In this document: positions 17,932 to 47,706 of the stretch, one piece after another
Position numbering within the stretch: the first letter of the stretch is position 1
Layout of the letters: every line of letters starts with the position of its first letter
Assembly (NCBI GenBank): GCA_024641335.1
Contig: JAHEDG010000001.1
Span: 46,910 to 110,909, forward strand
Direction of reading: 5' to 3'
Origin: Candidatus Zixiibacteriota bacterium
GTDB lineage: Bacteria; Zixibacteria; MSB-5A5; UBA10806
DNA: 64,000 nucleotides
Translations under genes and position numbers: made by a program
Notes under the pieces: model-generated
What the model was told of the DNA's origin: nothing
The model's database searches: none
Seen by the model: the letters and a program-made list of their open reading frames with translations, nothing else

Positions 17932-17938
17932 TCAATTA

Positions 17939-25330: not shown

Positions 25331-27013
25331 TTGATGAAGTCAGCCAGATTTGCTATAATATTTTTTATCGTGACGGCCCTTGCCTGCGGCAGGGCGGTGA
25401 AAAAAGAAACCGGTCCCGATTCGGGCGAAAAGGACGCATATTCGTCATACCGGGCTTATGATCATTTTGTCAAGGGAGACCTCTACGAACAGTCGGGGAA
25501 TCTCGACGGCGCCGTGGACGAATATCGCAAAGCGTTGATCTACGACCCGTTTTCGGCCGAAATCAGGCGGACATTGTCGGATGTTTATTTCAATCAGAGG
25601 AAATTCAGCGAAGCGGCGGTGCTTCGCTCGGAGATAAAACAAAAAACAGTTGACGATTATAATTTCATAGGGGATTGCCTGCATTTCAGCCGGGATTTCA
25701 GAGGGGCTCTCGATTTTTACAAGAGATCTCTGGAAATGGACCCCAGACAGTATCTTCCCAGAAAATACTCGGCCGGGCTTTATCAGTATCTGGGCGATAT
25801 GGATGAGGCCGAAAAGCAATATAAAGTCGCCGTGGAACACGCGCCGGATAAGCAGGAAGCCTGGCTCGATCTGGGTACTTTTTATCTCAGGCAGTCCGAT
25901 GACGATCGGGCGTTGGGCGCTTTCGAGGAAGCCTTGAAAGAAGATTCCAGCGATGTTCGCACTATTCTGGAAATCGCTTCCATCAGAATGAACGCCGGGG
26001 ATACGACCCTGGCGGACAGTATGTATATCGATCTGGCCGAGAAAAACTGGGATAATCCGGCTATGCTTCAGTCTATGGTGCCGTTGTTTTTCTCCGTAAA
26101 CGATGACCAGACGGCCCGCAGAATCGGGGCCCGCGTTCTGGAGCTCGAGCCCGGCAATCCCGATGTTCAAAGACAATACGCTTATATCCTTTTCAGCAGC
26201 CAGAAATTTGTCCAGGCCGAATCTCTGATGATCGTGTTGGACCAGAATGGTCATGCCGATTCGGATATCTATTACTATCTGGCCAGAATCAGGCAGTATA
26301 ATGATGATTATCCGGCGGCCGAGGGGTATTTCAATAAGGCGCTGGCTCTCAACGATACCTTGTCGGACGCCTGGATCGGTCTGGCTATGAGCGTCGATTT
26401 GCAGGGTAGATATCAGGAAGCTCTTGTCTTAATGAAGAACGCCCTGGATAAAATCCCGGGGGACTCGACAGTCATTATGTTTTACACTGCTGTTGTACAT
26501 TCCAATAACGAGCGGTTCGAGCTGGCCCGCGACGGATATATCCGCCTGTTGAACTCCAATCCGGATAATATTCAATTCAAATTCAATTTGGGTGCCTCTT
26601 ACGAAAGGCTGGGGCAGTTTGATGACGCGGAAAGAGAATTCAAACAGATTATAAAGAAAACGCCCGATAATCCGCTGGCTTTGAATTATCTCGGATATAT
26701 GTACGCTGATAAGGGGATAAAACTCAATGAGGCCTTAGCGATGATTGAAAAGGCCATATCTTTAGATCCGGACAACGGCGCTTTCCTTGACAGCTATGCC
26801 TGGGCGTTGTATAAACTGAAAAGGTATGATGAGGCTATTGTGCAGATGAACAAGGCGTTGGAGATAGACGATAGCGACGCTATTCTATTCGATCATCAGG
26901 GGGATATCTACGCCGCCTTGAATCAACCGGACAAAGCAAGGGAGAGCTGGGGCAAAGCGCTCGAGCTCGATCCCGATAACCAGGAAATTATCTCGAAATT
27001 GAAACTTAGGTGA
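25331..27013 (+). CDS. TPR-repeat lipoprotein
   Basis: Lipobox 'ALACG'. Multiple 34-aa TPR-like repeats ('AWLDLGTFYLRQSDDDRALGAFEEALK' and similar). Confidence 0.8.
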   Translation: MMKSARFAIIFFIVTALACGRAVKKETGPDSGEKDAYSSYRAYDHFVKGDLYEQSGNLDGAVDEYRKALIYDPFSAEIRRTLSDVYFNQRKFSEAAVLRSEIKQKTVDDYNFIGDCLHFSRDFRGALDFYKRSLEMDPRQYLPRKYSAGLYQYLGDMDEAEKQYKVAVEHAPDKQEAWLDLGTFYLRQSDDDRALGAFEEALKEDSSDVRTILEIASIRMNAGDTTLADSMYIDLAEKNWDNPAMLQSMVPLFFSVNDDQTARRIGARVLELEPGNPDVQRQYAYILFSSQKFVQAESLMIVLDQNGHADSDIYYYLARIRQYNDDYPAAEGYFNKALALNDTLSDAWIGLAMSVDLQGRYQEALVLMKNALDKIPGDSTVIMFYTAVVHSNNERFELARDGYIRLLNSNPDNIQFKFNLGASYERLGQFDDAEREFKQIIKKTPDNPLALNYLGYMYADKGIKLNEALAMIEKAISLDPDNGAFLDSYAWALYKLKRYDEAIVQMNKALEIDDSDAILFDHQGDIYAALNQPDKARESWGKALELDPDNQEIISKLKLR

Positions 27014-28704
27014 GAAGAACCGGTCTCGTTTTTTATTTAGTTTGCTTATCGCTTTCGGTTATTTTGACCTGCGCGGTAAATGATTCTCCGTCGGGAGGAC
27101 CAGCTGATACAACGCCCCCTACGGTAGTCAATGTAGAACCGGAACCCGGCAGCACCGGCATATCCGCCGATATCGTATTCTCCATAGAGTTTTCGAAACC
27201 GATGAGACCTGACGCGGTAGAGAATTCTATTTTCCTTTCCCCTGTTTTCTGGGATTACCCCGAATTCAAATGGTCGGGAAGAAAACTGACCATCAAGCCC
27301 CCGGAAAAACTTAAGGAAAATACCACCTATGTGCTGACTGTCGGTGCGGGCGCCACCGATACCCGCCGTAACAAGATGGGCAAATCGTATAGTTTCCCGT
27401 TTTCCACCGGCGCTATGATCGACAGCGGATCGGTCTGGGGAGGGATATTCTCTCTGGAAAGCAATCGAACATCATACGATATCTGGGCATACAGAATAGA
27501 CAGTTCGACAATCTCCGGTTTTATGGCCCTGATACCCGATTATGGAACACAGGTCGATTCCGCAGGAGGTTTTTCCATCCAGAATATGGCGGCCGGAGAT
27601 TATATCGTGGTGGCTGTCGACGACAAGAATGATGACCTGTTCTGCGATCCATCGTCCGAATCAATGGCCTTGCCGCCGGGGATTGTCTCTGTCGCCGGAA
27701 GCGCCCGGATCGACGGAATAATCTTAAGGCCCGAACGACGGGATACGATTCCGGCTTTTTTCTCCAGGGTGGAACCGCTCAACGACCGGCTTTTGTCAGT
27801 AGAATTTTCTCAGCCGGTAGATGACAGGATGGAATTGGATACCGTGTCTTACTATATTCAGGCTTCCGATTCGTCGGGGTTGGCGATCATGGGAGCTTAT
27901 CTGTCTGAAAGCGGACGTTTGAATATCGAGACCGATTATCAGTCCGCGGAGAGATCTTATCGGCTCAAGCCGAACGGTCTAATCTCCGAATGGGGTGTGC
28001 GGTTCGATACGTCGGGAGGCAGCTTCAAGGGCAATCCCAAGCCCGATTCAGCCGGTCCGAAATTAATATCCACTTTTCCTCCCGGCGGTTCGCGATCTGT
28101 TTACCAGGATACTGTTGTGGAACTGACCTTCTCCGAAAGGATCAATCCCCGCGGTTTTGCCGAATCGGTGTCCATGGTTTCGGATTCTCTGGATACTCTG
28201 CCGTTTATTCCGAAATGGACATCTCCCAATAAAGCGGCTCTATTAGTACCTGGCGGGATTCCCAGGGAGAAGAAAATAGAAGTTCGATTGCGGCCCGAGA
28301 AAATCTTCGATACGGTCGGCAACCGTATGGAAGACAGTGTAGTTACTTTCTCTTTCAAGCTGGCTCCTGTCGATACGGTCGGCTCGGTTTTAGCCAGGAT
28401 AAAATCGATCGGTCGATATCCCGTGATTGGCGAGCTAAAATCGCTTCGTCGGGGAGGGGAAACATATCAGGCCTCCGCTAATTCCGCCGGCCTGGTTCGA
28501 TTCCAAACAGTTATGCCGGGATCTTACAAATTTTATTTCTATGAAGATAAAGACCTTAACGGTAAATGGAGTCCTGGGTCGGTTACTCCTTTCCGGCCGG
28601 CGGATCGTTTTTCATTTCTGCCCGATTCCATTATTGTCAGATCCAGATGGGATACTGAAATAGGTGAAGTGGATTTACCTGTTGTCAACAGCGAAAAATA
28701 TTGA
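27010..28704 (+). CDS. Secreted protein with SbsA-type Ig-like domains
   Basis: Signal peptide. 'PPTVVNVEPEPGSTGISADIVFSIEFSKPM' and 'PKLISTFPPGGSRSVYQDTVVELTFSERI' bacterial Ig-like (Big_5) motifs. Confidence 0.55.
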   Translation: MRRTGLVFYLVCLSLSVILTCAVNDSPSGGPADTTPPTVVNVEPEPGSTGISADIVFSIEFSKPMRPDAVENSIFLSPVFWDYPEFKWSGRKLTIKPPEKLKENTTYVLTVGAGATDTRRNKMGKSYSFPFSTGAMIDSGSVWGGIFSLESNRTSYDIWAYRIDSSTISGFMALIPDYGTQVDSAGGFSIQNMAAGDYIVVAVDDKNDDLFCDPSSESMALPPGIVSVAGSARIDGIILRPERRDTIPAFFSRVEPLNDRLLSVEFSQPVDDRMELDTVSYYIQASDSSGLAIMGAYLSESGRLNIETDYQSAERSYRLKPNGLISEWGVRFDTSGGSFKGNPKPDSAGPKLISTFPPGGSRSVYQDTVVELTFSERINPRGFAESVSMVSDSLDTLPFIPKWTSPNKAALLVPGGIPREKKIEVRLRPEKIFDTVGNRMEDSVVTFSFKLAPVDTVGSVLARIKSIGRYPVIGELKSLRRGGETYQASANSAGLVRFQTVMPGSYKFYFYEDKDLNGKWSPGSVTPFRPADRFSFLPDSIIVRSRWDTEIGEVDLPVVNSEKY

Positions 28705-28734: not shown

Positions 28735-31700
28735 ATGCTTCGAAATCTGGTTCGTAAATCGGTCCTGATGGTGGCGTTTTTCTGTGTATTTTGCATAATT
28801 TTTACCGGATTAACAGCCGCCGAATCGAAATCAGTTCATAAGGTTCTGTTTTCTCCTGATAGACCTGTGACCGGATCGTTGCGTATCGAATTCCCGGATA
28901 ACCGGTTAAAACCGTTGTTTGCCTATGCGGCAACTGCCGACGGTCGTTTTCCGGCATCGGCTCCGGTTGTCACCGCCGACGCCATAAACCTGGAATTACC
29001 ATCGGATCGAGGGGCAGTCACAGGCGTAGTTATCCTGGCCGAAAGCGGTTTGCCGGATCCCGATTTTTCGCGCTTGAGAATATTGTCGGGCGGCCGTGCT
29101 CTTAAGGGGTTTTTTAGTTGGTACGATGGTCTGTCGCTGGACGTTTTGAACAGTGTCACTGATAGTCTGGCCCTGGCGGAAGTCGGAGCCTCTGATACTC
29201 ATAAGATAGGATTCACTACTTCATCGCTGGCCTTGAGCGACTCGGCTATAATCTGGGTTACTTTCCCCGGCGGTTTCGATATCTCGGCCATCGGTACGGC
29301 GATCTATTCCGACAATGACCCGGCTAATAACGGCAATGAACCGCAGGTGGCCTCATGGGATAGCGTCGGGCAGACGGTTAAGTTTTTCCTGAATTCCGGA
29401 GCTCAACCGGCTGTGGTCGGTTCGAGAATATCGGTGGTATTTTCGCCGGTGACCAACGATACGGCAGCCGGCAGTTTCACAGTTGTAGCGCTGACCACCG
29501 ACTCTCTTGGCAATATTGAGAACGGCCCCGATGTTTCGGCGCCCTTTAACCTGAACCCGTCAGCTCTGGATCATATTGCCATTTCTCCATCGGCTCCGAT
29601 AAGTATTCCGGCCGATTCATCGGTTCTCTTCGATGTCAGCGGGGCGGATATATACAACAATATTATCGATACGCTGACATTCGCCTACGCCCTGACTGTC
29701 GATTCCTGCGGACAGGTTTCAGACGGGATTTTCACCGCTATCAAAGTGGGGGCCTGCTACCTGACAGCGTCAACAGGCGGCATTACCGATTCATCCGGCT
29801 TGATCACGGTCGTACCGGGGCAGATAGGCAGGTTCGGATTGAGCGGATATCCGGAATCGAGAACGGCCGGCGTCGGTTTTATCAATCCGATCAATGTTAA
29901 GGTATATGACGTTCGCGAGAATATTAAGACCGATTATCTGGGAGAAATGTGGTTTACCAGCTCCGATACTCTGGCCACTCTGCCTTATAATTCGGTTTCG
30001 CGCTACACGTTTACCGTGGGTGACCAGGGGCAGCATAATTTCGCGGGTTCCGGTTTTACTTTGAGAACCGCCGGGAATATGTATATCATGGCTACGAACG
30101 GCCCGGTTACCGATTCCACCGCCTTTATCAGGGTAAACTCGGCGGTGATAGACACTTTTCTCTTCAGTGTCGTAGCATCACAAACCGCCGGATATAGTTT
30201 CAATCTGCAGGTTGTTTCGGCCTATGATCAGTTTAATAATCCGGCATCCGGCCAGGTGATAGTCTCGTTCTCCGGCGGAACAGGCGGGAATTCCCCCGAC
30301 GGCATACCTCCGTCGCTGAATAATATCAATGTTACTTCGGGCAACGGTTCCGCCTTGCAAACCCTGACCAACGCTGTCCCGACTATTCTCGAAGGTTCGG
30401 TTTCCGGAGCGATGAGTATCGGCGATACTATTTTGGTGGCGCCGGGCAATCTGGGACGATTTACATTGGACGGTTATCCCGATTCCACTACCGCGGGAAA
30501 TGTTTTTCCGAATCCCGGAATCGATGCTACGGTCTTTGATATTTTCGGCAATCTCAAAACGAATTTCCTCGATTCGGTTTATTTCGAAAGCTCCGACACG
30601 CTGGCTGTAGTGCCGTATACCGGTTCAGGCAACTCGAAATATAAATTCGTTTCGGCCGATTCCGGTTCGCATATATTTCCCGGAGCTGGATTTATATTAA
30701 AGACATCCAATGAGCAGGATATAAGCATTACCAACGGAACAATCGCGGACACATCCAACAATATCATGGTCTGGCCGGGGCCGATCAATTCATTCATTCT
30801 CTTCGCTCCGATACCGCCGGTAACCGCGGGAACACCATTTCAGGTTACGGTTAACAATTGCCGAGATCAATGGGCTAATCCGACCGGAGGCACGGTTACC
30901 GTGACCGACAGCGTCGGGGGAGGATCATCTCCCAACGGCACGCCTCCGATATTCAATTCCATTCGGGTTGTCAGCGGCGCCGGCAGCGCGTATCAGACGC
31001 TGGTCAATATGGTCACGACGGTTTTATCCGGGGCGTCCGGTTCCATAGTGAGAGTAACCGACAGCGTATACGTCCTGCCGGGATCGTCTCTGGGGGTACT
31101 CGATCTGAATATTACCACTCCTCAAGTCAACGCCACTCCGTTTACCGGCACGGCTGATCTTACAGCTTATGATACCTATGGCAATTTGAAGACCAATTTC
31201 GACGCTTCGTCCGATAATATTACTATCTCCTCATCCGCCGGAGGGGTCATGCAGAACAATCTTTTTGATCAGGCGGGGGATTTTGTCGGCGGCGTAGTCG
31301 ATCTGGTTGCCCGGGGAACTTCATTCAATGGACGAGGAGGGGTGATGACCTTCTCGGCTGCCTCCAATTCAGGGGTAATCGGGATTTCCGACCCGGTGGA
31401 TATGCGGGCTATCTCCTGCGACAGCCTGCTGATTAACGAAGCTATCGTATCCTGGGGCGATACCGCTACCGGTATTGCCTGGGTTACCAACGACGGCGGA
31501 GCGCCGGTTGATATCACCGATATAGATGTATACACCGAATCGGGGACCACGCTCAATCCCGTATCCATAACTCCCGCGCTGCCTCACACGCTCGGTCCCG
31601 GCCTGGATAACGCCTATAATATCGCAATAGAGATTCCGATCGGTTTTACTCCCGGCATATATCCATTAACTGCCGCTGTCGCCGGGGCGTTCGGCATATA

Positions 31701-34683
31701 TCCTGTTTATGACACATTAAGCGGATTCGCCGATACCCTGGAAATCCAGCAGGCGTCGAATATAGGGTATGTCGCCGGATCACTCAACCGCGATACTCTC
31801 TCGACCGGGGAATGGTACTCCTTATCATTTAGAATCAGCAATACCGGCGATGCCGGGTTCGGAGTTCTGGATAGTTCCTTTATATATTTTACCGATACCG
31901 TCCGGGAATTTATGGCCCCGATATCCAGCGGAGTTTATGTTCCTCCGAATACTCCTTCGGGGATCCTGGCTGTTATGGATTCCGCTCTGGTCGATCCTTT
32001 ATTTGGCGAGGGGATTTACCAGGCTCAATTCATTTATTACGGCCGGGAGAACGGTCATTTTATATCCGGCTCGTTCCCGCTCAACGATTCGATCAGAATT
32101 CAGGCAAGCGCGGATATTTCTTATATAACCGGCTCTCTGAATATCGCTTCCCTGGTTCCGGGACAAAACGCTTTGTTTTCCATCCGGGTTCATAACTCCG
32201 GAGCGGCTTCGTTTATTGTGGATCATCAGAACACCAGGTTTTATTTTACCGATTCGGTCAGGGATTATATCGCCTATGCCGATACATCGTCGGGCAACAG
32301 GGTCGATATGATTACCTCTGATACCACCATACATTTTGCCCAGGCGGTGCTGCATTCGCAGTTTTCCTCGGGGATATATCAGCCCGGCATAAATCTGCGA
32401 GGGACCCAGAACGGAATATATAAGAATTTAACCCTTAATTCCTCGCCAGATTCCGTTTTGGTATCTTCCCGCGGGACATTAAGAATCGACACGACTTACA
32501 TAATGACCCGCAACGCTCCCTTCGCCAATATATCCCAACCTTGTTCATTGCTGGTCAGTGTTTCCAACGGCGGGGAGGAGGGAATAGATAATTTCGCCAT
32601 TAATCTTTTTACCGACGGCGGTTCCACAGTTCCCGCGCCGTTTACCGTCGCCCATCTCAACGGTCTGAGCTCGATCGATACGATATTTCAGATCACCTCC
32701 GGGGCGGCGCCTGATTCGAGCGAGATATTCTCAAGCTCCATATCCGGCGGGTCAGGAGAGATTATCGGACTTCCGCCGCCGATCCTTCCGCCGCTCGATA
32801 ATTACGCCCTGCTGGTTATAGAGACACCGGCAGAGCTGGCTCTTTCGCCCATAGATATTGTCTCGCCTCCGGAAGCGATGGACGACACGGTTACTATCGG
32901 GCAGAACCTTATCATTTCGGCTTCGGCAGCCAATCTCGGACAGGCCGATATTACGGGGGTTCAAAGTCTCACTCTCGATCCGGGATCGACAGGGTTCATC
33001 ATTAACGGGCCGGCGTCCCAGACTTTTATTCTCGATCAGGATCTGTTCTGGAATATAACCGCGCCCCCAAACCCGGTCAGCCTGGCCGTATTGACCATAC
33101 GTTTTACGTCATTTCCATTCGATCGCAACGACGGTTCCTCGTCGGTGGGAGCGGATTCGGTTTCCACTCGAACTTTCGAAATTGATACCAGCCCCGCGAT
33201 CAGTCAGAGTCCGGCCGTCACCGCCCCGGCCGGGGCAGTCGACCGGTTAATCTCTACCGATCAGACATTTGCCCTGACTGATACACTTGACCCGCTCGGT
33301 ATCTATTCCGGTCTTTCGGCGCTTATCGAGCTTCCCGCCGGTTTTACCACGCAAGATTCGCTTTTAAAACATCCTTCCGGGAATATTGTTCGCTGGACTT
33401 TAAGAGCTCCGTCAGTTCCGATGGATGATTCTGTGGCTGTGCACAGCTGGCTTTTCGATACCAATACCGGCGATTCAGTCGGGACAGCGGTCGATTATAT
33501 CGTCTTATCGACGGTACGGCGGGCCGATCTGAATATATCATCGAGGATAGCCGGTCCGCAGGCGGCGTTGGACGGCATCCTCGAACCGTCCTCGGAGCTG
33601 TTGTTCTCGGCCAGGGTAGATAATAACGGTACGGCCGCGGCAGGTACAGGCCGATTGCTTTTACATTTAGGCAGCCCCGATATGATCTCTCAGGAGCCGC
33701 TGGTCAGGGATTTCACCCCAGGCGTACCGGTACAATGGACCATTACGGTTCCGGATACCGAAAGCGTGGTTCCGATACCGATCTGGGCCACCATAGATTC
33801 CATACCTGATGACGTGAACAGTAATCTGCCGTCATTCGTATCCAATGATCTTTCCGGTGTCACTGTGACAGTGAAGGAGCTGCTGCCTCAAATGGCTGTT
33901 ATCCCCCGCGCGGCCTATTCGGGATCGGTGGTCAAAGGGCAGGAGTTGGTTTTTCTTTCATTCGCCATACGTGACAGGGACAGGGGAGGTTCCTATTCAG
34001 TGGGAGTGCTCGAATTAAGTTTCGGTTTACATTCCAGCCCGGTGGCGGATATTTACAGTCTTTTCTCCAGCGCGTCTCTAAGCTGGGATGCATCGTTCGT
34101 GGAAGCCGCGACCGGAACACCCGGGTTGATGAGTTTTGTTTTCCCGGATACCATTGTTCTGGGGCCGGGAGAGACCATAGAATTCGATCTTAATATCACA
34201 ATTTCCGACAGCGCCCCGGCCGTGGACTTTTCGCTGGCTCTGGATGGGGAGGATATCTTAGGGGTTGCTTTCGATAACGGCATCCCCACAGCCGGATTGA
34301 TCGGCGTCTCCTCAACCGGAGACCCATTGCTCTGGGAAGGGAATCCCACGGTTATTCTCGATGCCGATTTCTCCTCTTCGGTATCCAGCTATCCCAATCC
34401 GTTTAATCCCGATAACGAGGCGGCCAAAATAGGATATTACCTGGCGGCCGCTTCTGATCTTGAAATTAGAATATTCACCCTGCTCGGCGAACTGGTATGG
34501 ACGAAGAGTATCGGCAAAAGCGACGCTCTTGGCGGAGCGGGTCTGCATACCGGGGATTCGGCATTATTATGGTACGGCAAGAACGATTCCGGATATGAGA
34601 TTAATTCCGGAGTTTATATCTGCATAATAAAAAATATTACTACCGGCGAGGAGGAGAGATTCAAAATCGCGGTCGTAAAATAA
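28735..34683 (+). CDS. Giant (1982 aa) cell-surface protein with repeated Ig-like modules and T9SS-type C-terminal sorting domain
   Basis: Signal peptide. About three repeated modules 'G(Y)P(E/D)S(R/T)TAG...V(Y/F)D(V/I)..N.KT(D/N)(Y/F)L...(F/W)..SSDTLA..PY'. C-terminal 'SYPNPFNP...GELVW...WYGKNDSG...SGVYICII...FKIAVVK' matches the Por secretion tail. Confidence 0.75.
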   Translation: MLRNLVRKSVLMVAFFCVFCIIFTGLTAAESKSVHKVLFSPDRPVTGSLRIEFPDNRLKPLFAYAATADGRFPASAPVVTADAINLELPSDRGAVTGVVILAESGLPDPDFSRLRILSGGRALKGFFSWYDGLSLDVLNSVTDSLALAEVGASDTHKIGFTTSSLALSDSAIIWVTFPGGFDISAIGTAIYSDNDPANNGNEPQVASWDSVGQTVKFFLNSGAQPAVVGSRISVVFSPVTNDTAAGSFTVVALTTDSLGNIENGPDVSAPFNLNPSALDHIAISPSAPISIPADSSVLFDVSGADIYNNIIDTLTFAYALTVDSCGQVSDGIFTAIKVGACYLTASTGGITDSSGLITVVPGQIGRFGLSGYPESRTAGVGFINPINVKVYDVRENIKTDYLGEMWFTSSDTLATLPYNSVSRYTFTVGDQGQHNFAGSGFTLRTAGNMYIMATNGPVTDSTAFIRVNSAVIDTFLFSVVASQTAGYSFNLQVVSAYDQFNNPASGQVIVSFSGGTGGNSPDGIPPSLNNINVTSGNGSALQTLTNAVPTILEGSVSGAMSIGDTILVAPGNLGRFTLDGYPDSTTAGNVFPNPGIDATVFDIFGNLKTNFLDSVYFESSDTLAVVPYTGSGNSKYKFVSADSGSHIFPGAGFILKTSNEQDISITNGTIADTSNNIMVWPGPINSFILFAPIPPVTAGTPFQVTVNNCRDQWANPTGGTVTVTDSVGGGSSPNGTPPIFNSIRVVSGAGSAYQTLVNMVTTVLSGASGSIVRVTDSVYVLPGSSLGVLDLNITTPQVNATPFTGTADLTAYDTYGNLKTNFDASSDNITISSSAGGVMQNNLFDQAGDFVGGVVDLVARGTSFNGRGGVMTFSAASNSGVIGISDPVDMRAISCDSLLINEAIVSWGDTATGIAWVTNDGGAPVDITDIDVYTESGTTLNPVSITPALPHTLGPGLDNAYNIAIEIPIGFTPGIYPLTAAVAGAFGIYPVYDTLSGFADTLEIQQASNIGYVAGSLNRDTLSTGEWYSLSFRISNTGDAGFGVLDSSFIYFTDTVREFMAPISSGVYVPPNTPSGILAVMDSALVDPLFGEGIYQAQFIYYGRENGHFISGSFPLNDSIRIQASADISYITGSLNIASLVPGQNALFSIRVHNSGAASFIVDHQNTRFYFTDSVRDYIAYADTSSGNRVDMITSDTTIHFAQAVLHSQFSSGIYQPGINLRGTQNGIYKNLTLNSSPDSVLVSSRGTLRIDTTYIMTRNAPFANISQPCSLLVSVSNGGEEGIDNFAINLFTDGGSTVPAPFTVAHLNGLSSIDTIFQITSGAAPDSSEIFSSSISGGSGEIIGLPPPILPPLDNYALLVIETPAELALSPIDIVSPPEAMDDTVTIGQNLIISASAANLGQADITGVQSLTLDPGSTGFIINGPASQTFILDQDLFWNITAPPNPVSLAVLTIRFTSFPFDRNDGSSSVGADSVSTRTFEIDTSPAISQSPAVTAPAGAVDRLISTDQTFALTDTLDPLGIYSGLSALIELPAGFTTQDSLLKHPSGNIVRWTLRAPSVPMDDSVAVHSWLFDTNTGDSVGTAVDYIVLSTVRRADLNISSRIAGPQAALDGILEPSSELLFSARVDNNGTAAAGTGRLLLHLGSPDMISQEPLVRDFTPGVPVQWTITVPDTESVVPIPIWATIDSIPDDVNSNLPSFVSNDLSGVTVTVKELLPQMAVIPRAAYSGSVVKGQELVFLSFAIRDRDRGGSYSVGVLELSFGLHSSPVADIYSLFSSASLSWDASFVEAATGTPGLMSFVFPDTIVLGPGETIEFDLNITISDSAPAVDFSLALDGEDILGVAFDNGIPTAGLIGVSSTGDPLLWEGNPTVILDADFSSSVSSYPNPFNPDNEAAKIGYYLAAASDLEIRIFTLLGELVWTKSIGKSDALGGAGLHTGDSALLWYGKNDSGYEINSGVYICIIKNITTGEEERFKIAVVK

Positions 34684-34787
34684 TACCGGCTGCCTTTCTC
34701 CTGGCGGCCGCGGTATTTTCCACAGTCCATTCACAGGGGGATTCGGGCCGGGAATCGCCGTTCTCCTTAGGCGCCGGGGCCAGAGGT

Positions 34788-36515
34788 ATGGGCATGGGGC
34801 ATGCCTATGTTTCCCTGTCGGGCGACGCTTCCGCGCCGTTCTGGAATTCGGCCGCTATCGCCGGAATCGACAGGCCGGAGTTTATGGCTTTCCGAACTAC
34901 CCTGTTTTTGGAAACTAATTACGATTGCCTCGGTTTTTCATATCCTATGGAAAATATCGGCGTTTTTTCGCTCTCCCTGGGGAGAATAGGCGCGGATAAT
35001 ATTCCCCGCAGGGATCAATTCAACAGGCTGATAGATACCTTCTCATCATCCGAGACACAGCTGGGTTTGAGCTATGCCCGCGATATCATTTATGGACTTA
35101 ACGGAGGGATTACAATCAAGGCTGTCTCCAAGGATATCGGCGGCGCGGCGGGAGCCGGGACCGGAGCCGATCTGGGGTTCCAGTTTTCCCCTCCATTCGC
35201 GGAATATATCACCCTGGGGATGGGGTTCAATGATCTGATTCGGCCGGGGATAAAATTGTTGTCGGCCCAGGATAAATACGCCACAGTCTCTCGTTTCGGT
35301 ATAGCTTCATCCAATAAAGTCGGCGATAAATTCCAATTCACCGAAAGCCTGGAGCTTAATTCGTCGGCAGGACGCAAAACCAGGTTTATGATCGGGGCGG
35401 AGATGGCTTATACCGGACAATATTTCCTCCGGGCCGGTTATAATTATGAGCGGATCACATTTGGCGCGGGAATTATTTACAGATTCATTAAACTCGATTA
35501 TGCGTTCGAGAATTACGAATTCCTCGGCGCCAGCCATAAAATATCATTCGGTGTGTCGTTCGGAAAATCAGTCGGTTTGAGCAGGGAAGCTCGTCTGGCC
35601 GGAATGGTGGAAAAGGAAAGAAAGAAGTGGGAGGCGAATCTGGCCGGCAGGCAATCGTTGGCGGCGGATTCGATAGTGATTGTTGCGGATAGTCTTTTAG
35701 TTAACGGGCAATATCAGGAGGCTCTATTCAACTATGAGAAATCCCTGGCCCTGGACAGCGGTTCAGAAAAAGCTCGAGTTATGGTCGACAGCGTAATGAA
35801 CCTGATCATTTTCAATTCTATCAGGAATGTCTCTGACAAGAAGCGCGAAGAGCTTATCGCCGGCCGGGTGCAATCGGCCCTCAATGATCAGAAAGCGGGT
35901 CTTTTCAACGACGCTATTCTGAAATACAATCTTCTAATCGAGATCGATCCCGGCAATAAAGCTCTTACCGATCTTCTGAAAGCGGCCCGTAACGCCCGGA
36001 CAGCGGAAATCACCAGACGAAGAGAACAGGCCCGGACCCGTCAGGAACAAGGCGATCTGACCGGAGCGCTGGCCGAATGGAATCAGGTATTATCGCTCGA
36101 CAGAAACGATGCTATGGCTCGGTCTCAATCCGAGATAGTTTTAAAACAGATGAGAGCCAACGATCTGGTGGCCGCGGCTGTGGCCAGTGTGAATGAGGGT
36201 AATTTCGAACGAGCCGCCGACTATCTTAGCCGGGCGCAGGAATTGAAGCCGGATGACAGATCCATAAGGAACCTGCTTATAGATACCCGTTCGAAATCGG
36301 TTCCCCCGACATCGTTGGAGGATATAAAAGCCAATTCGGAGCATTGGTCGATTTATATCTCGGCGTTGGAAAGTTACCAGGCCAGCGATTATAACAAAGC
36401 GATCGAGACCTGGGAAAGGCTCAGAGATTTCTATCCCAATAATCCCGATCTTGAGAAAAATATCAGCCAGGCCAGGCAACGGTTATCCGCTCAAGGCGGA
36501 AACTCCCGAGATTAA
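34788..36515 (+). CDS. PorV/LptO-like outer-membrane beta-barrel fused to C-terminal TPR-like helical domain (true start probably upstream, non-canonical)
   Basis: 'GMGHAYVSLSGDASAPFWNSAAIAG' resembles the N-terminal motif of PorV/UPF0164-type OMPs. The beta-barrel half ends at 'LDYAFENYEFLGASHKISFGVSFG'. A second half of about 300 aa has TPR-like helical repeats. An in-frame signal peptide lies upstream with no ATG/GTG/TTG (see findings). Confidence 0.5.
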   Translation: MGMGHAYVSLSGDASAPFWNSAAIAGIDRPEFMAFRTTLFLETNYDCLGFSYPMENIGVFSLSLGRIGADNIPRRDQFNRLIDTFSSSETQLGLSYARDIIYGLNGGITIKAVSKDIGGAAGAGTGADLGFQFSPPFAEYITLGMGFNDLIRPGIKLLSAQDKYATVSRFGIASSNKVGDKFQFTESLELNSSAGRKTRFMIGAEMAYTGQYFLRAGYNYERITFGAGIIYRFIKLDYAFENYEFLGASHKISFGVSFGKSVGLSREARLAGMVEKERKKWEANLAGRQSLAADSIVIVADSLLVNGQYQEALFNYEKSLALDSGSEKARVMVDSVMNLIIFNSIRNVSDKKREELIAGRVQSALNDQKAGLFNDAILKYNLLIEIDPGNKALTDLLKAARNARTAEITRRREQARTRQEQGDLTGALAEWNQVLSLDRNDAMARSQSEIVLKQMRANDLVAAAVASVNEGNFERAADYLSRAQELKPDDRSIRNLLIDTRSKSVPPTSLEDIKANSEHWSIYISALESYQASDYNKAIETWERLRDFYPNNPDLEKNISQARQRLSAQGGNSRD

Positions 36516-36602
36516 ACTTTACATGCTCCCGGCTTATTCCTAATATTAACGGCGGAGGTTTATTGTAGAAGTATGGCCAGAAAGCCGATAAAAGAGGTTT
36601 TC

Positions 36603-39488
36603 ATGAGCTTTCCCGCAGACGAGGGACAGCTCGAGGATATCCGAAGCAGCATACGCAATGTCCTGACGGAATCCGATCTTTCCAGCAAGGATATCAACGG
36701 CGTACTCCTTGCTATTGAGGAAGTCTGTACCAATGTCATCAGGCACGCTTATCTCTATGGCCCCGGAACTATCAGGATAAAAGTAAAACTGTACCATGGG
36801 CGGGTCTCTTTCTCCATATTCGATAAAGGCCGCAAATTCGATTACGATCATTCCGAAACCCCTGATCTGAACCGCTATATCAAAACCGGCCGCAAAGGCG
36901 GCCTGGGGTTATATCTGATCCGCAAGATGATGGATTCTGTGGAGTATTATTCCCGCGATGGCGAAAACGAACTGCGTATGGAAAAACAGGCCGACAAACA
37001 ACCGTCGAGAACTATCAGGGCTCCGGGCGTTTCCATCAGGGTGAAATTTTCTCTATGGGCGTCGCTGGTCGTCTTCGCCATCGTTACCAGCGTATTTATC
37101 TACATAGATAAGAGAACCGCCGAAGGAGCCACGGCCAGATTCTTCAAAGGCGCCTCCGATGTCATGGATTCATTTGTTTCCGATATCGGCGATAAGATCA
37201 TCTTCAAGGATGTAGATCTCTCCAAATCTGCCGAAGCCTGGCTGAAAGCCAATGAAAGTTTCACTTACCTGGTAGTAACCGATACTTCCGCGACTATAAT
37301 CGCCGATCCTAATAATCCCCGGAAGTTTCTCTCCAGATATGAGCCTATCCCCGAAAGCTACTATAACAACGACATAGCGGTTCAGGATTCATCGGGTATA
37401 AAAGCGTTCCATTACAAGAACACGGTGAAGCTCAACAACAATATCGTCGGATACGCCTATTTCGGAATTCTGGAATCTCCTCTGTTGGTGGAAATCGCCA
37501 ACGCCCGGCGGGGGTTATTTATAATCGCCATATTCGGTTTGATTGCCGGTTTCGTGGCGGTCTTCATGCTATCCAATTATTTTGTGAAACCGATTCAGAA
37601 GCTTACCGAAGGGGTGCTGAGAATAGGCGACGGCAATCTCGACCAGACCCTGCCGGTGGAGGGCGCCGATGAGTTTGCCGAGATAGCTATGGCATTCAAT
37701 GAGATTACCAACAAGTTCAAAAAATCGCAGGTAAACCTGGTCGAACAGGAACGTCTGCAAAAGGAAATGCAGGTGGCCCAGGAAATCCAGCATGCCCTTT
37801 TGCCTCGCAAATTTCCGGATGTCGAAGGGTACGATATCTCCACTATCTACCGGGCGGCCAAGGACGTGGGCGGAGATTATTTCGATTTCGTCAGGATCGA
37901 CGAGCATTCCATGGGGATAATCGTGGCCGACGTTTCCGGTAAAGGTGTTCCCGGGTCTCTGGTTATGACCATGATTCGAACGGCCCTGCGTTTGGAGTCG
38001 AGAGAAAACTATTCTCCCACATCCATCCTGAGCAAGGTTAACAAGTTCGTGGCCGACGATGTCAAGAAGGGAATGTTCATTACCATTTTCTTTATCACTC
38101 TGGATTCCCGAAAACGAACTATCTCTTACGCTTCCGCTGGTCATAATCCCATGATTCTATTCAGGAAAGATACCAATTCCTGCTATTTCCTCAATACCCG
38201 CGGAATGCCGCTGGGGATAAGCCTGCCGGACGATATCGCCTTTGAGGATTCTCTCCAGCATGACAGTGTCAAGCTGAAGAAAGACGATATGCTGGTGATC
38301 TACACCGATGGTATTACCGAGGCGATGAATAATTCCGGTCAGCAGTACGGCAACGACCGTCTGATCGAATTCATAAAAGCCAATTCCGAACTTCATCCTG
38401 AAGAGTTCACCAAAAAATTAGATGCCGATATCAACCGGTTTACTGCCGGAGCGCCGCAAAACGATGATATCACCCTGGTTGTGATTAAGGAAAAGATCAT
38501 GCTCGACGAGATAGTTTTCCAGCAGAGAAAACGTTTGATCGAGATGGTCGAATATGAGGGTATTTCAGCCGAGGATGCCTGCAAGGAGGCCGGGGTTTCC
38601 ATTTCGACCTATTATAAATACCGCCGCCGCTGGCAGAGGCTGGGTGACGCGGGATTACTGGATAAGAAGCTCAGGGCCGATTCCGGCATGAAGCAGATTC
38701 CCTATGAGGCTCGCAAGGAGATCCTCAATATAGTCAGAACTCACCCGGAATTCGGGGCCAAGAGAATAATCGATGAGGCTCGGAAAAACGGGATAGCTGA
38801 TCTGGATATGCGCGGTTTAAGCGAAGAGCTGACTCGCATGAGACTCAACACCAAAAAACTCCGTCTGGAATATGTGGAGAGAATGGGAGCTATGTCTCCC
38901 GATATGAGAGCGGAACTCGATAAGGAGATACTCAAGGATAAGGAGAAGAAAGAGCAGATCGACCGCGACGCCTATCTCGAGCAGATCAAGAAAAGCATCA
39001 GCGATAAGGCCCTGGAGGTTCCGCAGGGCTCCGATGAGGAACTCGAAAAGCTCAAGAGCCTGGAAACTGCTTTAGGAGATACGGGACTGTACAGCGATAT
39101 AGCCTCCGAACTGGGCAAACTCGGAGGAGGAAAAGATATCGCCGGTCTTTTCGAAAAGATGATACTGAAAATGGCCGAAGCTAAAGTGGATGAGGCTGAA
39201 ACCAGGGGAAATCCGGCCGAAGAAACAAATGATCAGGCGGCCGATCTGAACGTCTCAGAGTCGAAGGATAGCTTCCCGTCTCCTGAAGAGCCGAAAGAAA
39301 CAGGCGATTCCGAAGACAATGCCGGAAAACAGCCCGAGTTGGCGCCACAAACCCTGCCGGAATCGGACGCCACGCCTATCGACGTGGTCGACGCTGCTTC
39401 AGAGAATGACAATGCCGGCGAAGAAGAAGAACAGTTGGATTGGGACAATTACAGCAAAAAGCTTCAGGAAAAATTCGATAAAAAATGA
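36603..39488 (+). CDS. Multidomain membrane signalling protein: RsbW-like anti-sigma Ser/Thr kinase (HATPase) + TM + periplasmic sensor + TM + HAMP + PP2C/SpoIIE phosphatase + transposase-like HTH + acidic tail
   Basis: N-terminal 'LLAIEEVCTNVIRHAY...GGLGLYLIRKMMD' (HATPase_c_2). Two TM segments flank a ~130-aa loop. HAMP 'IQKLTEGVLRIGDGNLDQTL'. PP2C 'GGDYFDFVRIDEHSMGIIVADVSGKGVPGSLVMT...DMLVIYTDGITEA'. HTH 'GISAEDACKEAGVSISTYYKYRRRWQRLGDAGLLDKK...HPEFGAKRIIDE'. Start at 36603 (AAAGAGG RBS) is preferred over the track start 36573. Confidence 0.7.
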   Translation: MSFPADEGQLEDIRSSIRNVLTESDLSSKDINGVLLAIEEVCTNVIRHAYLYGPGTIRIKVKLYHGRVSFSIFDKGRKFDYDHSETPDLNRYIKTGRKGGLGLYLIRKMMDSVEYYSRDGENELRMEKQADKQPSRTIRAPGVSIRVKFSLWASLVVFAIVTSVFIYIDKRTAEGATARFFKGASDVMDSFVSDIGDKIIFKDVDLSKSAEAWLKANESFTYLVVTDTSATIIADPNNPRKFLSRYEPIPESYYNNDIAVQDSSGIKAFHYKNTVKLNNNIVGYAYFGILESPLLVEIANARRGLFIIAIFGLIAGFVAVFMLSNYFVKPIQKLTEGVLRIGDGNLDQTLPVEGADEFAEIAMAFNEITNKFKKSQVNLVEQERLQKEMQVAQEIQHALLPRKFPDVEGYDISTIYRAAKDVGGDYFDFVRIDEHSMGIIVADVSGKGVPGSLVMTMIRTALRLESRENYSPTSILSKVNKFVADDVKKGMFITIFFITLDSRKRTISYASAGHNPMILFRKDTNSCYFLNTRGMPLGISLPDDIAFEDSLQHDSVKLKKDDMLVIYTDGITEAMNNSGQQYGNDRLIEFIKANSELHPEEFTKKLDADINRFTAGAPQNDDITLVVIKEKIMLDEIVFQQRKRLIEMVEYEGISAEDACKEAGVSISTYYKYRRRWQRLGDAGLLDKKLRADSGMKQIPYEARKEILNIVRTHPEFGAKRIIDEARKNGIADLDMRGLSEELTRMRLNTKKLRLEYVERMGAMSPDMRAELDKEILKDKEKKEQIDRDAYLEQIKKSISDKALEVPQGSDEELEKLKSLETALGDTGLYSDIASELGKLGGGKDIAGLFEKMILKMAEAKVDEAETRGNPAEETNDQAADLNVSESKDSFPSPEEPKETGDSEDNAGKQPELAPQTLPESDATPIDVVDAASENDNAGEEEEQLDWDNYSKKLQEKFDKK

Positions 39489-40228
39489 TAAAACTGGCAA
39501 TTCTGACTTCCAAAGGCGGTACCGGCAAGACAACGACCGCTATTAACCTCGGACATGGTCTGGCTTTATCGGGAAAACGGGTATTGCTTGTGGACTGCGA
39601 TCCCCAGGGATCGGCGTCCTCCGCTTTCAATGTCAATTCCGATAAAGGGCTGGTCGATCTGATGATGAATAACACGGCGGATATCTTTAAGGTCCGGCCG
39701 AATTTCTATCTTTTGCCATCCGGCCGCAAGAGGCTGGCCGATCTGGAGATGAAAATAGCCGCCATGCCGGATCGGAATAATATCCTCAGCAGGTCTCTTT
39801 CCCGGCTTTCGGGGTGCGATTATGTAATTTTAGATTGCTCTCCGTCGATAAATGTCATAAATTTAAACGCCTTAGAATATGCCGATTACTTATTGATCCC
39901 TTCTTCGCTGGATTACTTTTCGCTGGAAGGGGTCAAGACGACGATGGAGATAAAGAGAGAAATGAGCGCTGGCAGGAACGGATCCCTTGAGATTGTCGGA
40001 GTATTGCCGACATTTTATGATAGGAGGACGACTATTTCCAGACTGGCCCTGGAGAATCTCAGGGATAATTACGGTGATATGGTGCTAACCACGGAAATTA
40101 GAAACAATGCTCAGATAAAAAAGTCTCAATGGCATCGGAAAACAATATTCGAGTACGCCCCTTACTCCTACGGCGCATACGATTATTTTAACCTGTCAAA
40201 GGAGATTTTGGAAAGGCTGGGGGATTAA
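39485..40228 (+). CDS. ParA/MinD-family P-loop ATPase
   Basis: Deviant Walker A 'KGGTGKTT'. 'LLVDCDPQGSAS' and 'VILDCSP' motifs. ATGA overlap with the upstream gene. Confidence 0.85.
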   Translation: MIKLAILTSKGGTGKTTTAINLGHGLALSGKRVLLVDCDPQGSASSAFNVNSDKGLVDLMMNNTADIFKVRPNFYLLPSGRKRLADLEMKIAAMPDRNNILSRSLSRLSGCDYVILDCSPSINVINLNALEYADYLLIPSSLDYFSLEGVKTTMEIKREMSAGRNGSLEIVGVLPTFYDRRTTISRLALENLRDNYGDMVLTTEIRNNAQIKKSQWHRKTIFEYAPYSYGAYDYFNLSKEILERLGD

Positions 40229-40234
40229 AAAGCT

Positions 40235-40954
40235 ATGAGCGATATCAAGATATCTCTGGACAGTTCCGCTTCGGAAGGAGCTATCTCGGTAGTCAGGGTG
40301 GACGGGGTTATCGATACCATGACCGCCCCGGAGTTGGAAAAAGTCATGAACTCCCTGCTGGAGCAACGGAAATATAATATCATTGTCGATCTGGGAGGGG
40401 TTGACTATATCTCCTCGGCCGGTTGGGGTATATTTATTTCCAATATCCGGGAGATCAGGCAAAATGCCGGGGATATTAAGTTGGCCAGGATGATCCCCAA
40501 TGTCTATGAGATATTCGAGCTTCTGGAATTCGATTCTATTCTCAGAGCGTTCGATACGCTGGAGAAGGCCAAAAATGACTACGATGCGGCCGGAGGTAAA
40601 ATACCAGTCTCCACAGCGGTGGCTGCCGGACAAATCTCGGGCCAGGCTTCGCCCGAATCCAAACCCGCTGATCCGGCCGTTCCGCTGACCCCCATAGACG
40701 ATGGGAGTCCGAAGGAGTTTTCCGGTTCCAAGCCTCAAATGGCTCCGTCGTCGCCCGGAATTCACGCGGTGGTTCTCGAGCTGGTCAATAAGGACCCGTT
40801 TTTCAGCATCTCCGAAATAAAGAATGAGGTCAACAGAAGACAGCCGCAGCATAAGGCCGGGTGGTGGAAGATATGGTCGATTCTCAAGGAACATAAACTC
40901 CTTAGCAAGAAAAGCCGATATCGCAGAGCGAGGACCCAATCCGGGGATAAGTAA
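40235..40954 (+). CDS. STAS-domain anti-sigma-factor antagonist (SpoIIAA/RsbV-like) with ~120-aa C-terminal extension
   Basis: STAS core 'ISVVRVDGVIDTMTAPELEKVM...IIVDLGGVDYISSAGWGIF' with the conserved phosphorylatable Ser in 'YISSAG'. Pro/Ser-rich linker followed by a basic C-terminal segment. Confidence 0.75.
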   Translation: MSDIKISLDSSASEGAISVVRVDGVIDTMTAPELEKVMNSLLEQRKYNIIVDLGGVDYISSAGWGIFISNIREIRQNAGDIKLARMIPNVYEIFELLEFDSILRAFDTLEKAKNDYDAAGGKIPVSTAVAAGQISGQASPESKPADPAVPLTPIDDGSPKEFSGSKPQMAPSSPGIHAVVLELVNKDPFFSISEIKNEVNRRQPQHKAGWWKIWSILKEHKLLSKKSRYRRARTQSGDK

Positions 40955-42777
40955 TGAGTAATTCCCCCCTGTCCAAGGCTTATATAGCCCTGTTTATTAT
41001 ATTAGGCGCGGTATTGCCCGCGGTCATTTATTTTGCCCCGTCTTTTTCGATTGCCGCCGGATTGGGGGCAGGGATATTGATTGTCATGGTTTCGATATCG
41101 TTAAGCCTGCTGAAAACAGTCCGGGAATCGGCGCTTGTCAGCAGTTTGTATGACCACGAACGCGCTCGGGAATGGTCGCTGGCCCCGAAGCTTTTATCCG
41201 AGATTGCCGCTGATAACGGCCAGAATAAGCGGCTGGATTTAAAGATCGCGGAATTGCTGAAAGATAAGTTTCAGTTTGCGAATTTCGCCATATTCTTCAG
41301 GGAGGGGCAGAAGTATGAACCCTGGGTTTACTCCGGCATATCTTCCCGCCGCCTCGGTTCTCCCAAGGCCTTTCTTTTAAGGCAGTATTTCAGAGGAATT
41401 AAGGAAAACGGCTCGGTTTCGACCGACGAGAGAATCCTGAGGCTGCTGTTTAAAAACCACTCCGATGACGATTTTGAATTTTCCTATTCCTTCGTCTATC
41501 AATGGGATCGCTCCCGGTCAATTATTCTGGTTGCCGGAAAGCCGGCGGATCTTATGGCCGACGCTTTGAAAAGCCCTGACTTTAACAGGACTTTATGGCC
41601 GTTTCTGGATTCCCAGCTGCGTCAGGGGATGTATCACGAAAAAATCCAATCGGAGCTCAAACGGCAGAGAAACGGCTATTCCCAAACGAAACGGGAGAAC
41701 GCCGATCTCAATAAAGAACTTAATAACAGGCTTTTGAATTTAAATTCATTTGTAAAAATATCCGGCGACCTATATTCTATTTTCAATGAGGATCAATTGT
41801 TCGCCACGCTGAAGGAAGTTGTCAAAGGCCAGCTGGGAGCCGATAAAACCGGGATTCTACATCCCACCGGCGAGGGTCATTTTGCTCTGGACGACGGTGA
41901 CATACAGCCCGAATTGAAATTAATATTGGATTCCGAATCGGAATTTTTCAGTTTGCTGGCTAAAAATCCCAAGCCGGTGCTTTTGCCTCTGGCTGCTTCA
42001 GGACTCAAGAAGGACGAGCCGTTTATCAGCGCGGCGTTGGGAAATGGTTACCAGGCCGCCTGTTCCATCAGGGTGGGAGACAAGCAGGGAGCGGTTCTTT
42101 TGGTCGGGTCGAAGAACGACAAAACTCCTTATTCTCAGTTCGCCCTCGATTCCCTTTCCATTATCACCAATATCGCCTCGCTGGCCCTGGAGAATATCAG
42201 GCAATATTCCACTATAGAGAAACTCTCTTATACCGACAGCATGACCGGGATCTACAACTACCGTTATTTTTATAAACGACTCAGCGAGGAAATTCTCAGA
42301 TCCAAAAGGTATGACCGTGAACTTTCGCTGGTGATTCTGGACATAGACAATTTCAAGATATTCAACGATAACTACGGCCATCAAACCGGCGATTTGATCT
42401 TAAAGCAGATATCGCGTCTGATCATGGAGACCATACGATCCATCGACGTGGTCAGCAGGTACGGCGGGGAGGAATTCTGTATAATAATGCCCGATACCGG
42501 CGAGGATAACTGCAATATTTTTATCGAGAGATTGAGAAATGAGATCGCTAATTTCAAATTCAAGTCCGAATCTGTCGATGTCAAAACGCCGGTTACGGTC
42601 TCGGTCGGAGGGGCGATATTTCCAGGGCACGCCGAAACTCCGGACAGAATTATCTATTGCGCCGACATGGCCCTTTTGAAAGCCAAATCGATGGGGCGTA
42701 ATAAAGCCATAATGTTTCAACCGGGGCTTTTGGAACAGGAGAAATCCTCAATTGGGAGGTTCGATGATAACTTATAG
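40954..42777 (+). CDS. Membrane-anchored GGDEF diguanylate cyclase with N-terminal sensory region
   Basis: Two N-terminal TM helices and a ~380-aa cytoplasmic region. GGDEF domain with active site 'RYGGEEF' and I-site 'RSID' five residues upstream. Confidence 0.85.
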   Translation: MSNSPLSKAYIALFIILGAVLPAVIYFAPSFSIAAGLGAGILIVMVSISLSLLKTVRESALVSSLYDHERAREWSLAPKLLSEIAADNGQNKRLDLKIAELLKDKFQFANFAIFFREGQKYEPWVYSGISSRRLGSPKAFLLRQYFRGIKENGSVSTDERILRLLFKNHSDDDFEFSYSFVYQWDRSRSIILVAGKPADLMADALKSPDFNRTLWPFLDSQLRQGMYHEKIQSELKRQRNGYSQTKRENADLNKELNNRLLNLNSFVKISGDLYSIFNEDQLFATLKEVVKGQLGADKTGILHPTGEGHFALDDGDIQPELKLILDSESEFFSLLAKNPKPVLLPLAASGLKKDEPFISAALGNGYQAACSIRVGDKQGAVLLVGSKNDKTPYSQFALDSLSIITNIASLALENIRQYSTIEKLSYTDSMTGIYNYRYFYKRLSEEILRSKRYDRELSLVILDIDNFKIFNDNYGHQTGDLILKQISRLIMETIRSIDVVSRYGGEEFCIIMPDTGEDNCNIFIERLRNEIANFKFKSESVDVKTPVTVSVGGAIFPGHAETPDRIIYCADMALLKAKSMGRNKAIMFQPGLLEQEKSSIGRFDDNL

Positions 42778-43771: not shown

Positions 43772-43777
43772 GAATAT

Positions 43778-45361: not shown

Positions 45362-45364
45362 TTT

Positions 45365-47187: not shown

Positions 47188-47706
47188 TCAGATCCGTTAA
47201 ATTATCCGCATGCATTCTTTTTGCAATGTTTTGCATAATGGAATTATATGATCTATGTTTTAGTATTGGCCGCAATTATCGTTTTGGATCTGGGGAGCCT
47301 CCCTGTATTTTTGTGCCACCATAAGGTGTTATAAGATATAAAGATATAAGCGTTAAAATTATCTTGGGCGGTTAGATATATATTCTTTTGTCAAGACAGC
47401 GTTGTGGCAGCGAATTTGCGATTACATTTCCATAATTAAGGTGAAACTAATTTTGGAGAGTAATTTTTGAGATACCAAAGTCCTGTCGCAAATCCACTAG
47501 CCCACTACTGGGAAGAAGAGTTTATAGGGTTTTGGGGTCAATGGCTGAGATTCCGTGCAGGATCTCAACGGTTGCTCTACTATTTTCTCGGTGAGTTGGT
47601 ATTTGCCAATATCTATCTGCTTTTGGAGAGTATTGCCAACCATACCGTTATCTCCGCAGGACATTCGATAATCGTCAGGGTAAAATATAAACTTCACCCA
47701 TCGGTA

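Follow-up and report, generated by a model that had tools for sequence, protein, structure and literature searches.

We analyzed a 64,000-nucleotide stretch (the window) of contig JAHEDG010000001.1 from a Candidatus Zixiibacteriota bacterium. Zixibacteria is a phylum of the Fibrobacteres-Chlorobi-Bacteroidetes (FCB) superphylum. The window encodes two otherwise unrelated exported proteins, a metalloprotease and a giant repetitive protein, that end in the same kind of C-terminal domain (CTD). Directly downstream of the giant lies a gene for an outer-membrane barrel of the PorV/PorQ family, and its ribosome-binding site and apparent start codon (ATT) are within the last 12 codons of the giant's tail. 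We think it fairly probable that the two proteins are Sec-exported cargo of the type A-like kind, such as type IX secretion systems (T9SS) handle, with the barrel as the giant's cognate partner. The main features are:

9798-11651, + strand: metalloprotease open reading frame (ORF), 617 amino acids, MXAN_6640 family with HExxH, signal peptide and C-terminal sorting-type domain
11337-11651, + strand: CTD of the metalloprotease, ending in FKIAVVNNR
28735-34683, + strand: giant repetitive secreted protein, 1982 amino acids, signal peptide and C-terminal sorting-type domain
34381-34683, + strand: CTD of the giant, ending in GEEERFKIAVVK (...FKIAVVK)
34648-34656, + strand: Shine-Dalgarno-like GAGGAGGAG, within the giant's codons E-E-E, for the downstream barrel gene
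34659-36515, + strand: PorV/PorQ-family outer-membrane barrel with a C-terminal TPR domain, given from the proposed ATT start, with a 25-nt overlap with the giant

Two unrelated exported proteins with the same kind of tail

The original prediction, made from the letters of the window and its ORFs, was that the same sorting-type tail is present on two unrelated secreted proteins and that both tails share an FKIAVV terminus. Both statements hold: the peptides that it quoted form the very C-terminal ends of both ORFs (...GDGKSTSFKIAVVNNR for the metalloprotease and ...TTGEEERFKIAVVK for the giant), and the ends read FKIAVVNNR and FKIAVVK. The tails are real, and the coordinates that had been given for their starts were 1-2 nt out of register with the in-frame positions (11337 and 34381).

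The metalloprotease matches NF045524 at 225.5 bits (the cutoff is 140) and has an HEFFH motif. Metallopeptidases are a common class of T9SS cargo (PMC11205867). Outside its tail, the giant's sole Pfam signal is NPCBM_assoc at 19.0 bits, which is below the cutoff of 24.4. As read from the translations, both proteins begin with Sec-type signal peptides (MRKLVLPIILTLLAAGNVPA... for the metalloprotease and MLRNLVRKSVLMVAFFCVFCIIFTGLTAAE... for the giant).

The similarity between the two proteins is restricted to their last ~75-100 residues, so they are otherwise unrelated. The tails are 31-35% identical (35% over ~100 amino acids). When we compared each tail to a six-frame translation of the window (571 segments) with phmmer, it matched solely the other tail (E = 5e-5 or 1e-4), and there was no third copy. 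Orthologues of the metalloprotease (44-57% identity) and of the giant (1876-2605 amino acids, with equivalent synteny) are found in Zixibacteria. The giant protein itself has a sole database record, in the Logan assembly of run SRR12825371.

A PorV/PorQ-family barrel that appears to start inside the giant's tail

The original prediction had suggested looking for porV in the genome. A gene of the PorV/PorQ family is directly downstream of the giant, although it does not reach the level of the PorV equivalog. The encoded protein matches NF033709 (the PorV/PorQ family) at 96.4 bits, with a cutoff of 90, across model positions 16-326. A fold search identified a 14-stranded FadL-type outer-membrane beta-barrel that is closest to PorV. 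When a profile of the barrel-TPR protein was compared to PDB sequences, most matches were to the TPR part, and PorV was found at E = 0.013. Orthologues at 46-55% identity are named as Candidatus Zixiibacteriota or candidate division Zixibacteria, including the complete genomes CP070813.1 and CP070742.1.

In the public annotation, the barrel begins at the ATG at 34788, which gives a protein of 575 amino acids and loses the signal peptide. The open frame upstream of this ATG reads ...QNRGRKIIPAAFLLAAAVFSTVHSQGDSGRESPFSLGAGARGMGMG, which is a normal signal peptide and, after it, the N-terminal motif of the family. This upstream frame has no ATG, GTG or TTG. The sole candidate start is the ATT at 34659, two bases past GAGGAGGAG, and both elements are inside the giant's codons for GEEERFKIAVVK.

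To compare this junction across genomes, we scanned genomic contigs with an alignment of orthologues, which found 16 loci (a single barrel-TPR query found none), and we considered the 13 Zixibacteria-type loci with upstream DNA, including the window's own. The giant is followed by the barrel in all 13 loci, and in each of them the barrel's frame runs on into a signal peptide. All 13 giants end with ...G(E/Q)E(E/A/K)(K/R)(F/L)KIA(V/I)(V/I)K, and the DNA of the junction is (G/C)AGGAGG...A ATT (C/A)AA AAT throughout. There is zero third-base variation across the 13 loci in the two Shine-Dalgarno codons, in the K/R codon that gives the A of ATT, or in the next AAA, while four-fold degenerate sites just upstream of the Shine-Dalgarno element vary freely (1.3-1.9 bits). 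Where the giant's F has changed to L, the codon is TTA, so the ATT is preserved. At a more distant locus (L017, 30% identity), the barrel has an ATG that overlaps the giant's stop codon.

From this conservation we infer a start of the barrel gene at the ATT in the giant's tail, with its translation coupled to that of the giant. In public annotations, these barrels (569-606 amino acids) begin at whichever canonical codon comes first within the signal peptide or past it, and we flag what appears to be a systematic mis-annotation of start codons in this gene family.

Family and fold of the tails

The original prediction was that the tails follow the pattern of the Por secretion tail, and it proposed comparing them to TIGR04183 and PF18962. 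Both tails match both models, but each match is below the cutoff, with the giant's match to TIGR04183 the closest. The bit scores for the isolated tails are:

FlgD_ig (PF13860), cutoff 27: metalloprotease tail 30.7, giant tail 18.1
TIGR04183, cutoff 23: metalloprotease tail 14.7, giant tail 22.3
PF18962, cutoff 27: metalloprotease tail 13.4, giant tail 18.3
CHU_C (PF13585), cutoff 27: metalloprotease tail 13.8, giant tail 18.9

The FlgD_ig score for the metalloprotease falls to 26.1 when the domain is scored inside the full protein.

At the level of the family, the pattern is supported by profiles, by fold and by the name that NCBI gives to a paralogue. Both tails match the PorU and PorZ models at their C-terminal ends (for the giant and the CTD end of PorZ, E = 3.8e-6). 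A profile of the tails and their relatives matched PDB sequences of the FlgD immunoglobulin-like domain (E = 5e-8), the PorU CTD (E = 1.8e-4) and the PorZ CTD (E = 2.6e-4), and, more weakly, RgpB and the CTDs of Flavobacterium johnsoniae substrates. We modelled the giant's tail alone with AlphaFold2, which predicted a beta-sandwich (pLDDT 78.6). When this model was compared to the PDB with Foldseek, the best match was PorZ (5m11, E = 6e-4); PorU (6za2) had a TMq of 0.66, and FlgD was close behind. If the tails are aligned with PF18962-positive proteins, they have in common YP(N/S)PF, WDG.N..G, SG(V/I)Y and a closing K-h-h-h-h-(K/N) strand (h is hydrophobic), and insertions set both of them apart from PF18962-positive tails. 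Both tails also have the motifs of a type A CTD (a PxPF start, GxY in the penultimate strand and a basic-hydrophobic last strand). Paralogues and some orthologues of the metalloprotease carry PF18962, and NCBI has given a 731-amino-acid paralogue (P0068, from CP070813.1) the name "T9SS type A sorting domain-containing protein". Both tails thus belong, as divergent members, to the superfamily that comprises FlgD_ig and the T9SS type A CTDs.

Might the tails be ordinary structural FlgD_ig domains, with no role in sorting, on proteins that are periplasmic or exported in some other way? FlgD_ig is the sole Pfam model above its cutoff (for one tail only, when scored in isolation), the best PDB sequence matches are FlgD proteins, and the fold is shared. 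The tail family is also huge (435,492 representative clusters at E <= 1e-3) and is often internal and tandem; its best matches hold 5-15 tandem internal copies. But in the window, each domain closes a protein that has a Sec signal peptide, with no residues after it, and in the orthologues of both proteins the tail is likewise at the very C-terminal end. The YPNPF start and the terminal K-h-h-h-h-K strand agree with PF18962-positive tails. FlgD is a flagellar hook cap that is exported from the cytoplasm, whereas the domain in the window ends Sec-exported enzymes and adhesin-like giants. Together with the enrichment beside barrel genes that is described below, these observations make a purely structural role unlikely.

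The KIAVV strand and a shared 15-mer

The same 15 nucleotides, ATTCAAAATCGCGGT, encode (F)KIAV in both genes (11621-11635 and 34659-34673). The window has these two copies of the 15-mer and no others, where 0.03 copies would be expected by chance. Such an identity could arise if the two genes had recently undergone gene conversion or recombined with each other. But the identical stretch does not go beyond the 15-mer, with different codons on either side; across many genomes, orthologues that are 44-57% identical preserve KIAVV in both families; in the giant, the overlapping start is a further constraint that fixes these nucleotides; and in an alignment, each of the window's tails is placed with its own orthologues. 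We therefore reject gene conversion, which we consider very unlikely. Because KIAVV is conserved in the orthologues of both families, it is an old feature that is kept at the protein level.

We also considered dual coding as the sole cause of the conservation of FKIAVVK. In the metalloprotease gene, the alternative frame at the 15-mer stops after six codons, so there is no second overlapping gene. Orthologues of ~610 amino acids almost all end with ...(S/T/G)KIAV(V/I)N.., and no gene overlaps that region. Since these orthologues keep KIAVV without an overlapping gene, dual coding cannot be the sole cause. In the giant, the conservation of GEEE-FKIAVVK is partly due to the constraint from the overlapping gene start.

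The original prediction took the shared terminus to indicate a lineage-specific variant of the CTD. This is true of the last strand: KIAV(V/I) is conserved in both orthogroups across Zixibacteria, so KIAVV is a genuine sub-flavour of that strand. It is not true of the domain as a whole, as the identity between the window's two tails (31-35%) is no higher than their identity to generic CTDs of other origins (29-47%). Nor does it replace the canonical tails, as ...KKLTFLR and ...RKMVLIK tails coexist with KIAVV tails within the same genomes. The 731-amino-acid paralogues of the metalloprotease, which carry PF18962, end with ...RKMVLI(K/R). Also, the F of FKIAVV is not conserved among orthologues of the metalloprotease.

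On the same contig, ~9 kb to the left of the window, we noticed an M1-family peptidase with a canonical tail (...YPNPFNGST...TKKLTFLR; locus L020, 1-1958). This is another CTD cargo close to the window, the third in all, and it places canonical and KIAVV tails together in this genome.

Pairs of CTD proteins and barrels in other genomes and metagenomes

Similar pairs are found beyond Zixibacteria. A contig from a metagenome-assembled genome (MAG) that is labelled as Elusimicrobiota (JBDRQF010000053.1, locus L019) encodes two TPR proteins, a 1519-amino-acid CTD protein, a barrel of the PorV family (PorV_fam, 187.9 bits), a Wza-like protein and Wzc. The phylum label of this contig might reflect a binning error. 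In a Cloacimonadota MAG, a 1673-amino-acid CTD protein is followed by a PorV-like barrel. The giants from these two MAGs have no similarity to the window's giant outside of the tail.

More broadly, we scanned metagenomes with an alignment of four barrel sequences, which found 80 loci, of which 68 had at least 450 nt of upstream sequence. In 47 of these 68 loci, there is an ORF on the same strand that ends with a CTD and has its stop between -400 and +90 nt relative to the barrel match. Across all 80 loci, there are 374 ORFs of at least 300 amino acids, and 74 of these end with a CTD; 51 of the 74 are the upstream neighbour of the barrel, and the other 23 are elsewhere. Thus, CTD-terminated ORFs are about ten-fold enriched directly upstream of PorV/PorQ-like genes, which also argues against the tails being structural domains only. 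We examined seven of the upstream CTD proteins, and three of them pass the cutoff for TIGR04183. Ordinary porU-porV operons would give such pairs as well, but because none of the seven has a full-length match to PorU (0/7), the pairings are not porU-porV operons.

As a separate observation, in about 15 of the metagenome loci, a gene for a TonB-dependent-receptor-like protein (~900-1000 amino acids) is followed by a large CTD protein and a PorV/PorQ-like barrel. (These loci include L045-L048, L053, L060, L062, L065, L073, L089, L096 and L098.) The arrangement recalls the logic of SusC/SusD, with a CTD-anchored partner in place of the lipoprotein.

The gene neighbourhood

The genes around the giant and the barrel are:

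25331-28704, + strand: upstream genes of the module, for a 560-amino-acid TPR protein and a 564-amino-acid Big_5 immunoglobulin-like protein
36573-47187, + strand: downstream genes, for an RsbW-HAMP-PP2C regulator, a ParA-like ATPase, a STAS protein, a GGDEF cyclase, a Wza-like exporter, a Wzz-like chain-length determinant, a TPR protein and a tyrosine autokinase

The gene order is identical in the window, CP070813.1 and CP070742.1: DUF362, TPR, Big_5, giant, barrel-TPR, RsbW-HAMP-PP2C, ParA-like, STAS, GGDEF, Wza-like, Wzz-like, TPR and tyrosine kinase. The regulator (36573-39488) has 971 amino acids and joins an RsbW-like kinase to HAMP, a PP2C/SpoIIE phosphatase and a transposase-type helix-turn-helix region. 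This fusion is directly after the barrel in all of the Zixibacteria loci, and it is followed by the ParA-like, STAS and GGDEF genes.

Three regions (17915-21294, 25331-27013 and 42752-48366) have many sub-threshold matches to models for the XrtA/PEP-CTERM system, namely a PrsK-like kinase, a sigma-54 regulator, a PrsT-like TPR protein, a chain-length determinant, a tyrosine kinase and an EpsB-like transferase. We did not detect an exosortase in the window. Two genes past the metalloprotease, a 663-amino-acid ORF (12170-14161) has no match in Pfam or NCBIfam, and its composition and aromatic-rich C-terminus (...WGFRWNFFN) resemble those of an outer-membrane beta-barrel. For the 219-amino-acid ORF at the right end of the window, a look-up gave no record. 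Finally, on the - strand, 61195-62004 encodes a 269-amino-acid protein with matches to the OS_HP2 family (seleno)protein domain and to choice-of-anchor D, which is a further putative surface-protein domain.

A possible mechanism and its precedents

By analogy to known systems, the barrel would be a cognate outer-membrane partner that binds the giant's CTD and so shuttles the giant or anchors it on the cell surface. Crossing the outer membrane would require a translocon of the SprA type. The TPR domain of the barrel protein is probably periplasmic, since a barrel with an even number of strands has both of its termini on the periplasmic side, and this domain may link the giant-barrel pair to the co-encoded genes for exopolysaccharide export and for cyclic di-GMP signalling and partner switching. 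The module would serve a biofilm or exopolysaccharide programme under cyclic di-GMP and partner-switching control. No barrel gene accompanies the metalloprotease, which might take the same route, using either this barrel or a general PorV that is encoded elsewhere in the genome.

The window's proteins resemble the type A cargo that PorV handles in Porphyromonas gingivalis and F. johnsoniae. The likenesses are a signal peptide, a C-terminal immunoglobulin-like beta-sandwich of ~80-100 amino acids with a YPNPF start, SGVY and a final K-h-h-h-h-K strand, and a PorV-family barrel in the genome. Unlike those proteins, the window's tails are under the curated cutoffs and have insertions; the barrel is beside one of the cargo proteins and is fused to TPR; there is no translocon, motor or sortase within ~84 kb; and the host is a member of the Zixibacteria. 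The giant's tail is most similar to the CTD ends of PorZ and PorU, and the barrel is in the PorV/PorQ family, which recalls the PorZ-PorQ and PorU-PorV pairs, but beyond the tail, the giant has no homology to PorZ or PorU. We know of no report of porZ and porQ being adjacent or translationally coupled.

As in the type B pair SprB-SprF (PMC12618676, PMC9143113), a large surface protein is encoded directly upstream of a dedicated barrel that would receive it. In contrast to type B cargo and PorP/SprF, the giant's tail is type A-like, with no match to TIGR04131 and with a score for CHU_C of 18.9 (the cutoff is 27), and the barrel is in the PorV/PorQ family, with no match to PorP/SprF. For type B cargo, cognate PorP/SprF shuttles that are encoded beside the cargo have been shown (PMC12618676), and cognate PorV-like barrels have been proposed for PorZ/PorQ and for type B cargo (PMC10202324). 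Overall, the precedents for such barrels are PorV, which takes type A CTDs; PorQ, which holds the uncleaved CTD of PorZ; and PorP/SprF, which hold type B domains (PMC10202324, PMC12618676, PMC11205867).

Several points weigh against our reading of the tails as T9SS-like sorting signals and of the barrel as the giant's partner. Neither tail attains the curated cutoff for TIGR04183 (23) or PF18962 (27), and because the family is huge and includes tandem internal copies, the fold alone is no proof of a role in sorting. The barrel is far below the equivalog cutoffs for PorV (26.3 bits against NF033710, with a cutoff of 250) and for PorQ (39.7 bits against NF033711, with a cutoff of 220). The proposed ATT start comes from comparing sequences, and the putative binding between the CTD and the barrel from gene linkage and analogy. 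Genes for SprA, PorU and GldKLMN were not found in the window or in the 10 kb on either side (~84 kb in total). Also, our search of the literature found no paper that links Zixibacteria to type IX secretion; in the cited Cloacimonadota paper, a CTD is mentioned in passing. T9SS genes are said to be absent outside the FCB phyla, and Zixibacteria are missing from the FCB phyla that are listed as possibly having the system (PMC11285876). So, of the dedicated T9SS or CTD sorting pathway that the original prediction envisaged, the tail family and a PorV/PorQ-family neighbour are present, and the core genes are not seen within the ~84 kb.

Alternatively, the cargo and the barrel could be a self-contained pair for export or anchoring that is independent of the T9SS translocon and motor. 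This would fit with the lack of core genes nearby, and it would explain the presence of the pairs in phyla that are not credited with T9SS, such as in the Elusimicrobiota-labelled MAG, where the same gene pair is beside Wza and Wzc genes. But a 14-stranded FadL-type barrel is not known to let a folded protein of 200 kDa through, and the sole known role of PorV-type barrels is that of shuttles to which SprA hands over cargo (PMC10202324). Furthermore, the absence of core genes holds for ~84 kb of one genome, and the Elusimicrobiota label of one contig may be a binning error. We consider a self-contained pair to be improbable, and we favor a barrel that would receive the giant as a T9SS-like shuttle does.

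Implications

Tails of this kind are routine for a bacterium of the FCB group: there are over 238,000 TIGR04183 proteins in UniProt (PMC11205867), and NCBI already labels paralogues from Zixibacteria as T9SS type A cargo. What our analysis adds is a type A-like tail that appears to be hard-wired to its own PorV/PorQ-TPR barrel, with the ribosome-binding site and the apparent start codon of the barrel inside the tail's codons.

A bolder possibility, which we doubt, is that giants with CTDs and PorV/PorQ-like barrels form a widespread modular system for surface display, well beyond Bacteroidota and possibly without SprA or PorKLMN. If this were true, there would be dedicated barrels for individual type A-like tails, including in phyla that are not credited with T9SS (Elusimicrobiota), and variants of the display system would be wired to exopolysaccharide export, as in the window, or to TonB-dependent receptors.

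Under the reading that we favor, the principle of a cognate shuttle, which was shown for type B cargo with PorP/SprF and hypothesised for PorZ/PorQ, would come to cover type A-like tails and phyla other than Bacteroidota. The arrangement of cargo followed by barrel recurs in most of the environmental loci that we sampled, and concrete pairs are now available for testing how CTDs and barrels recognize each other.

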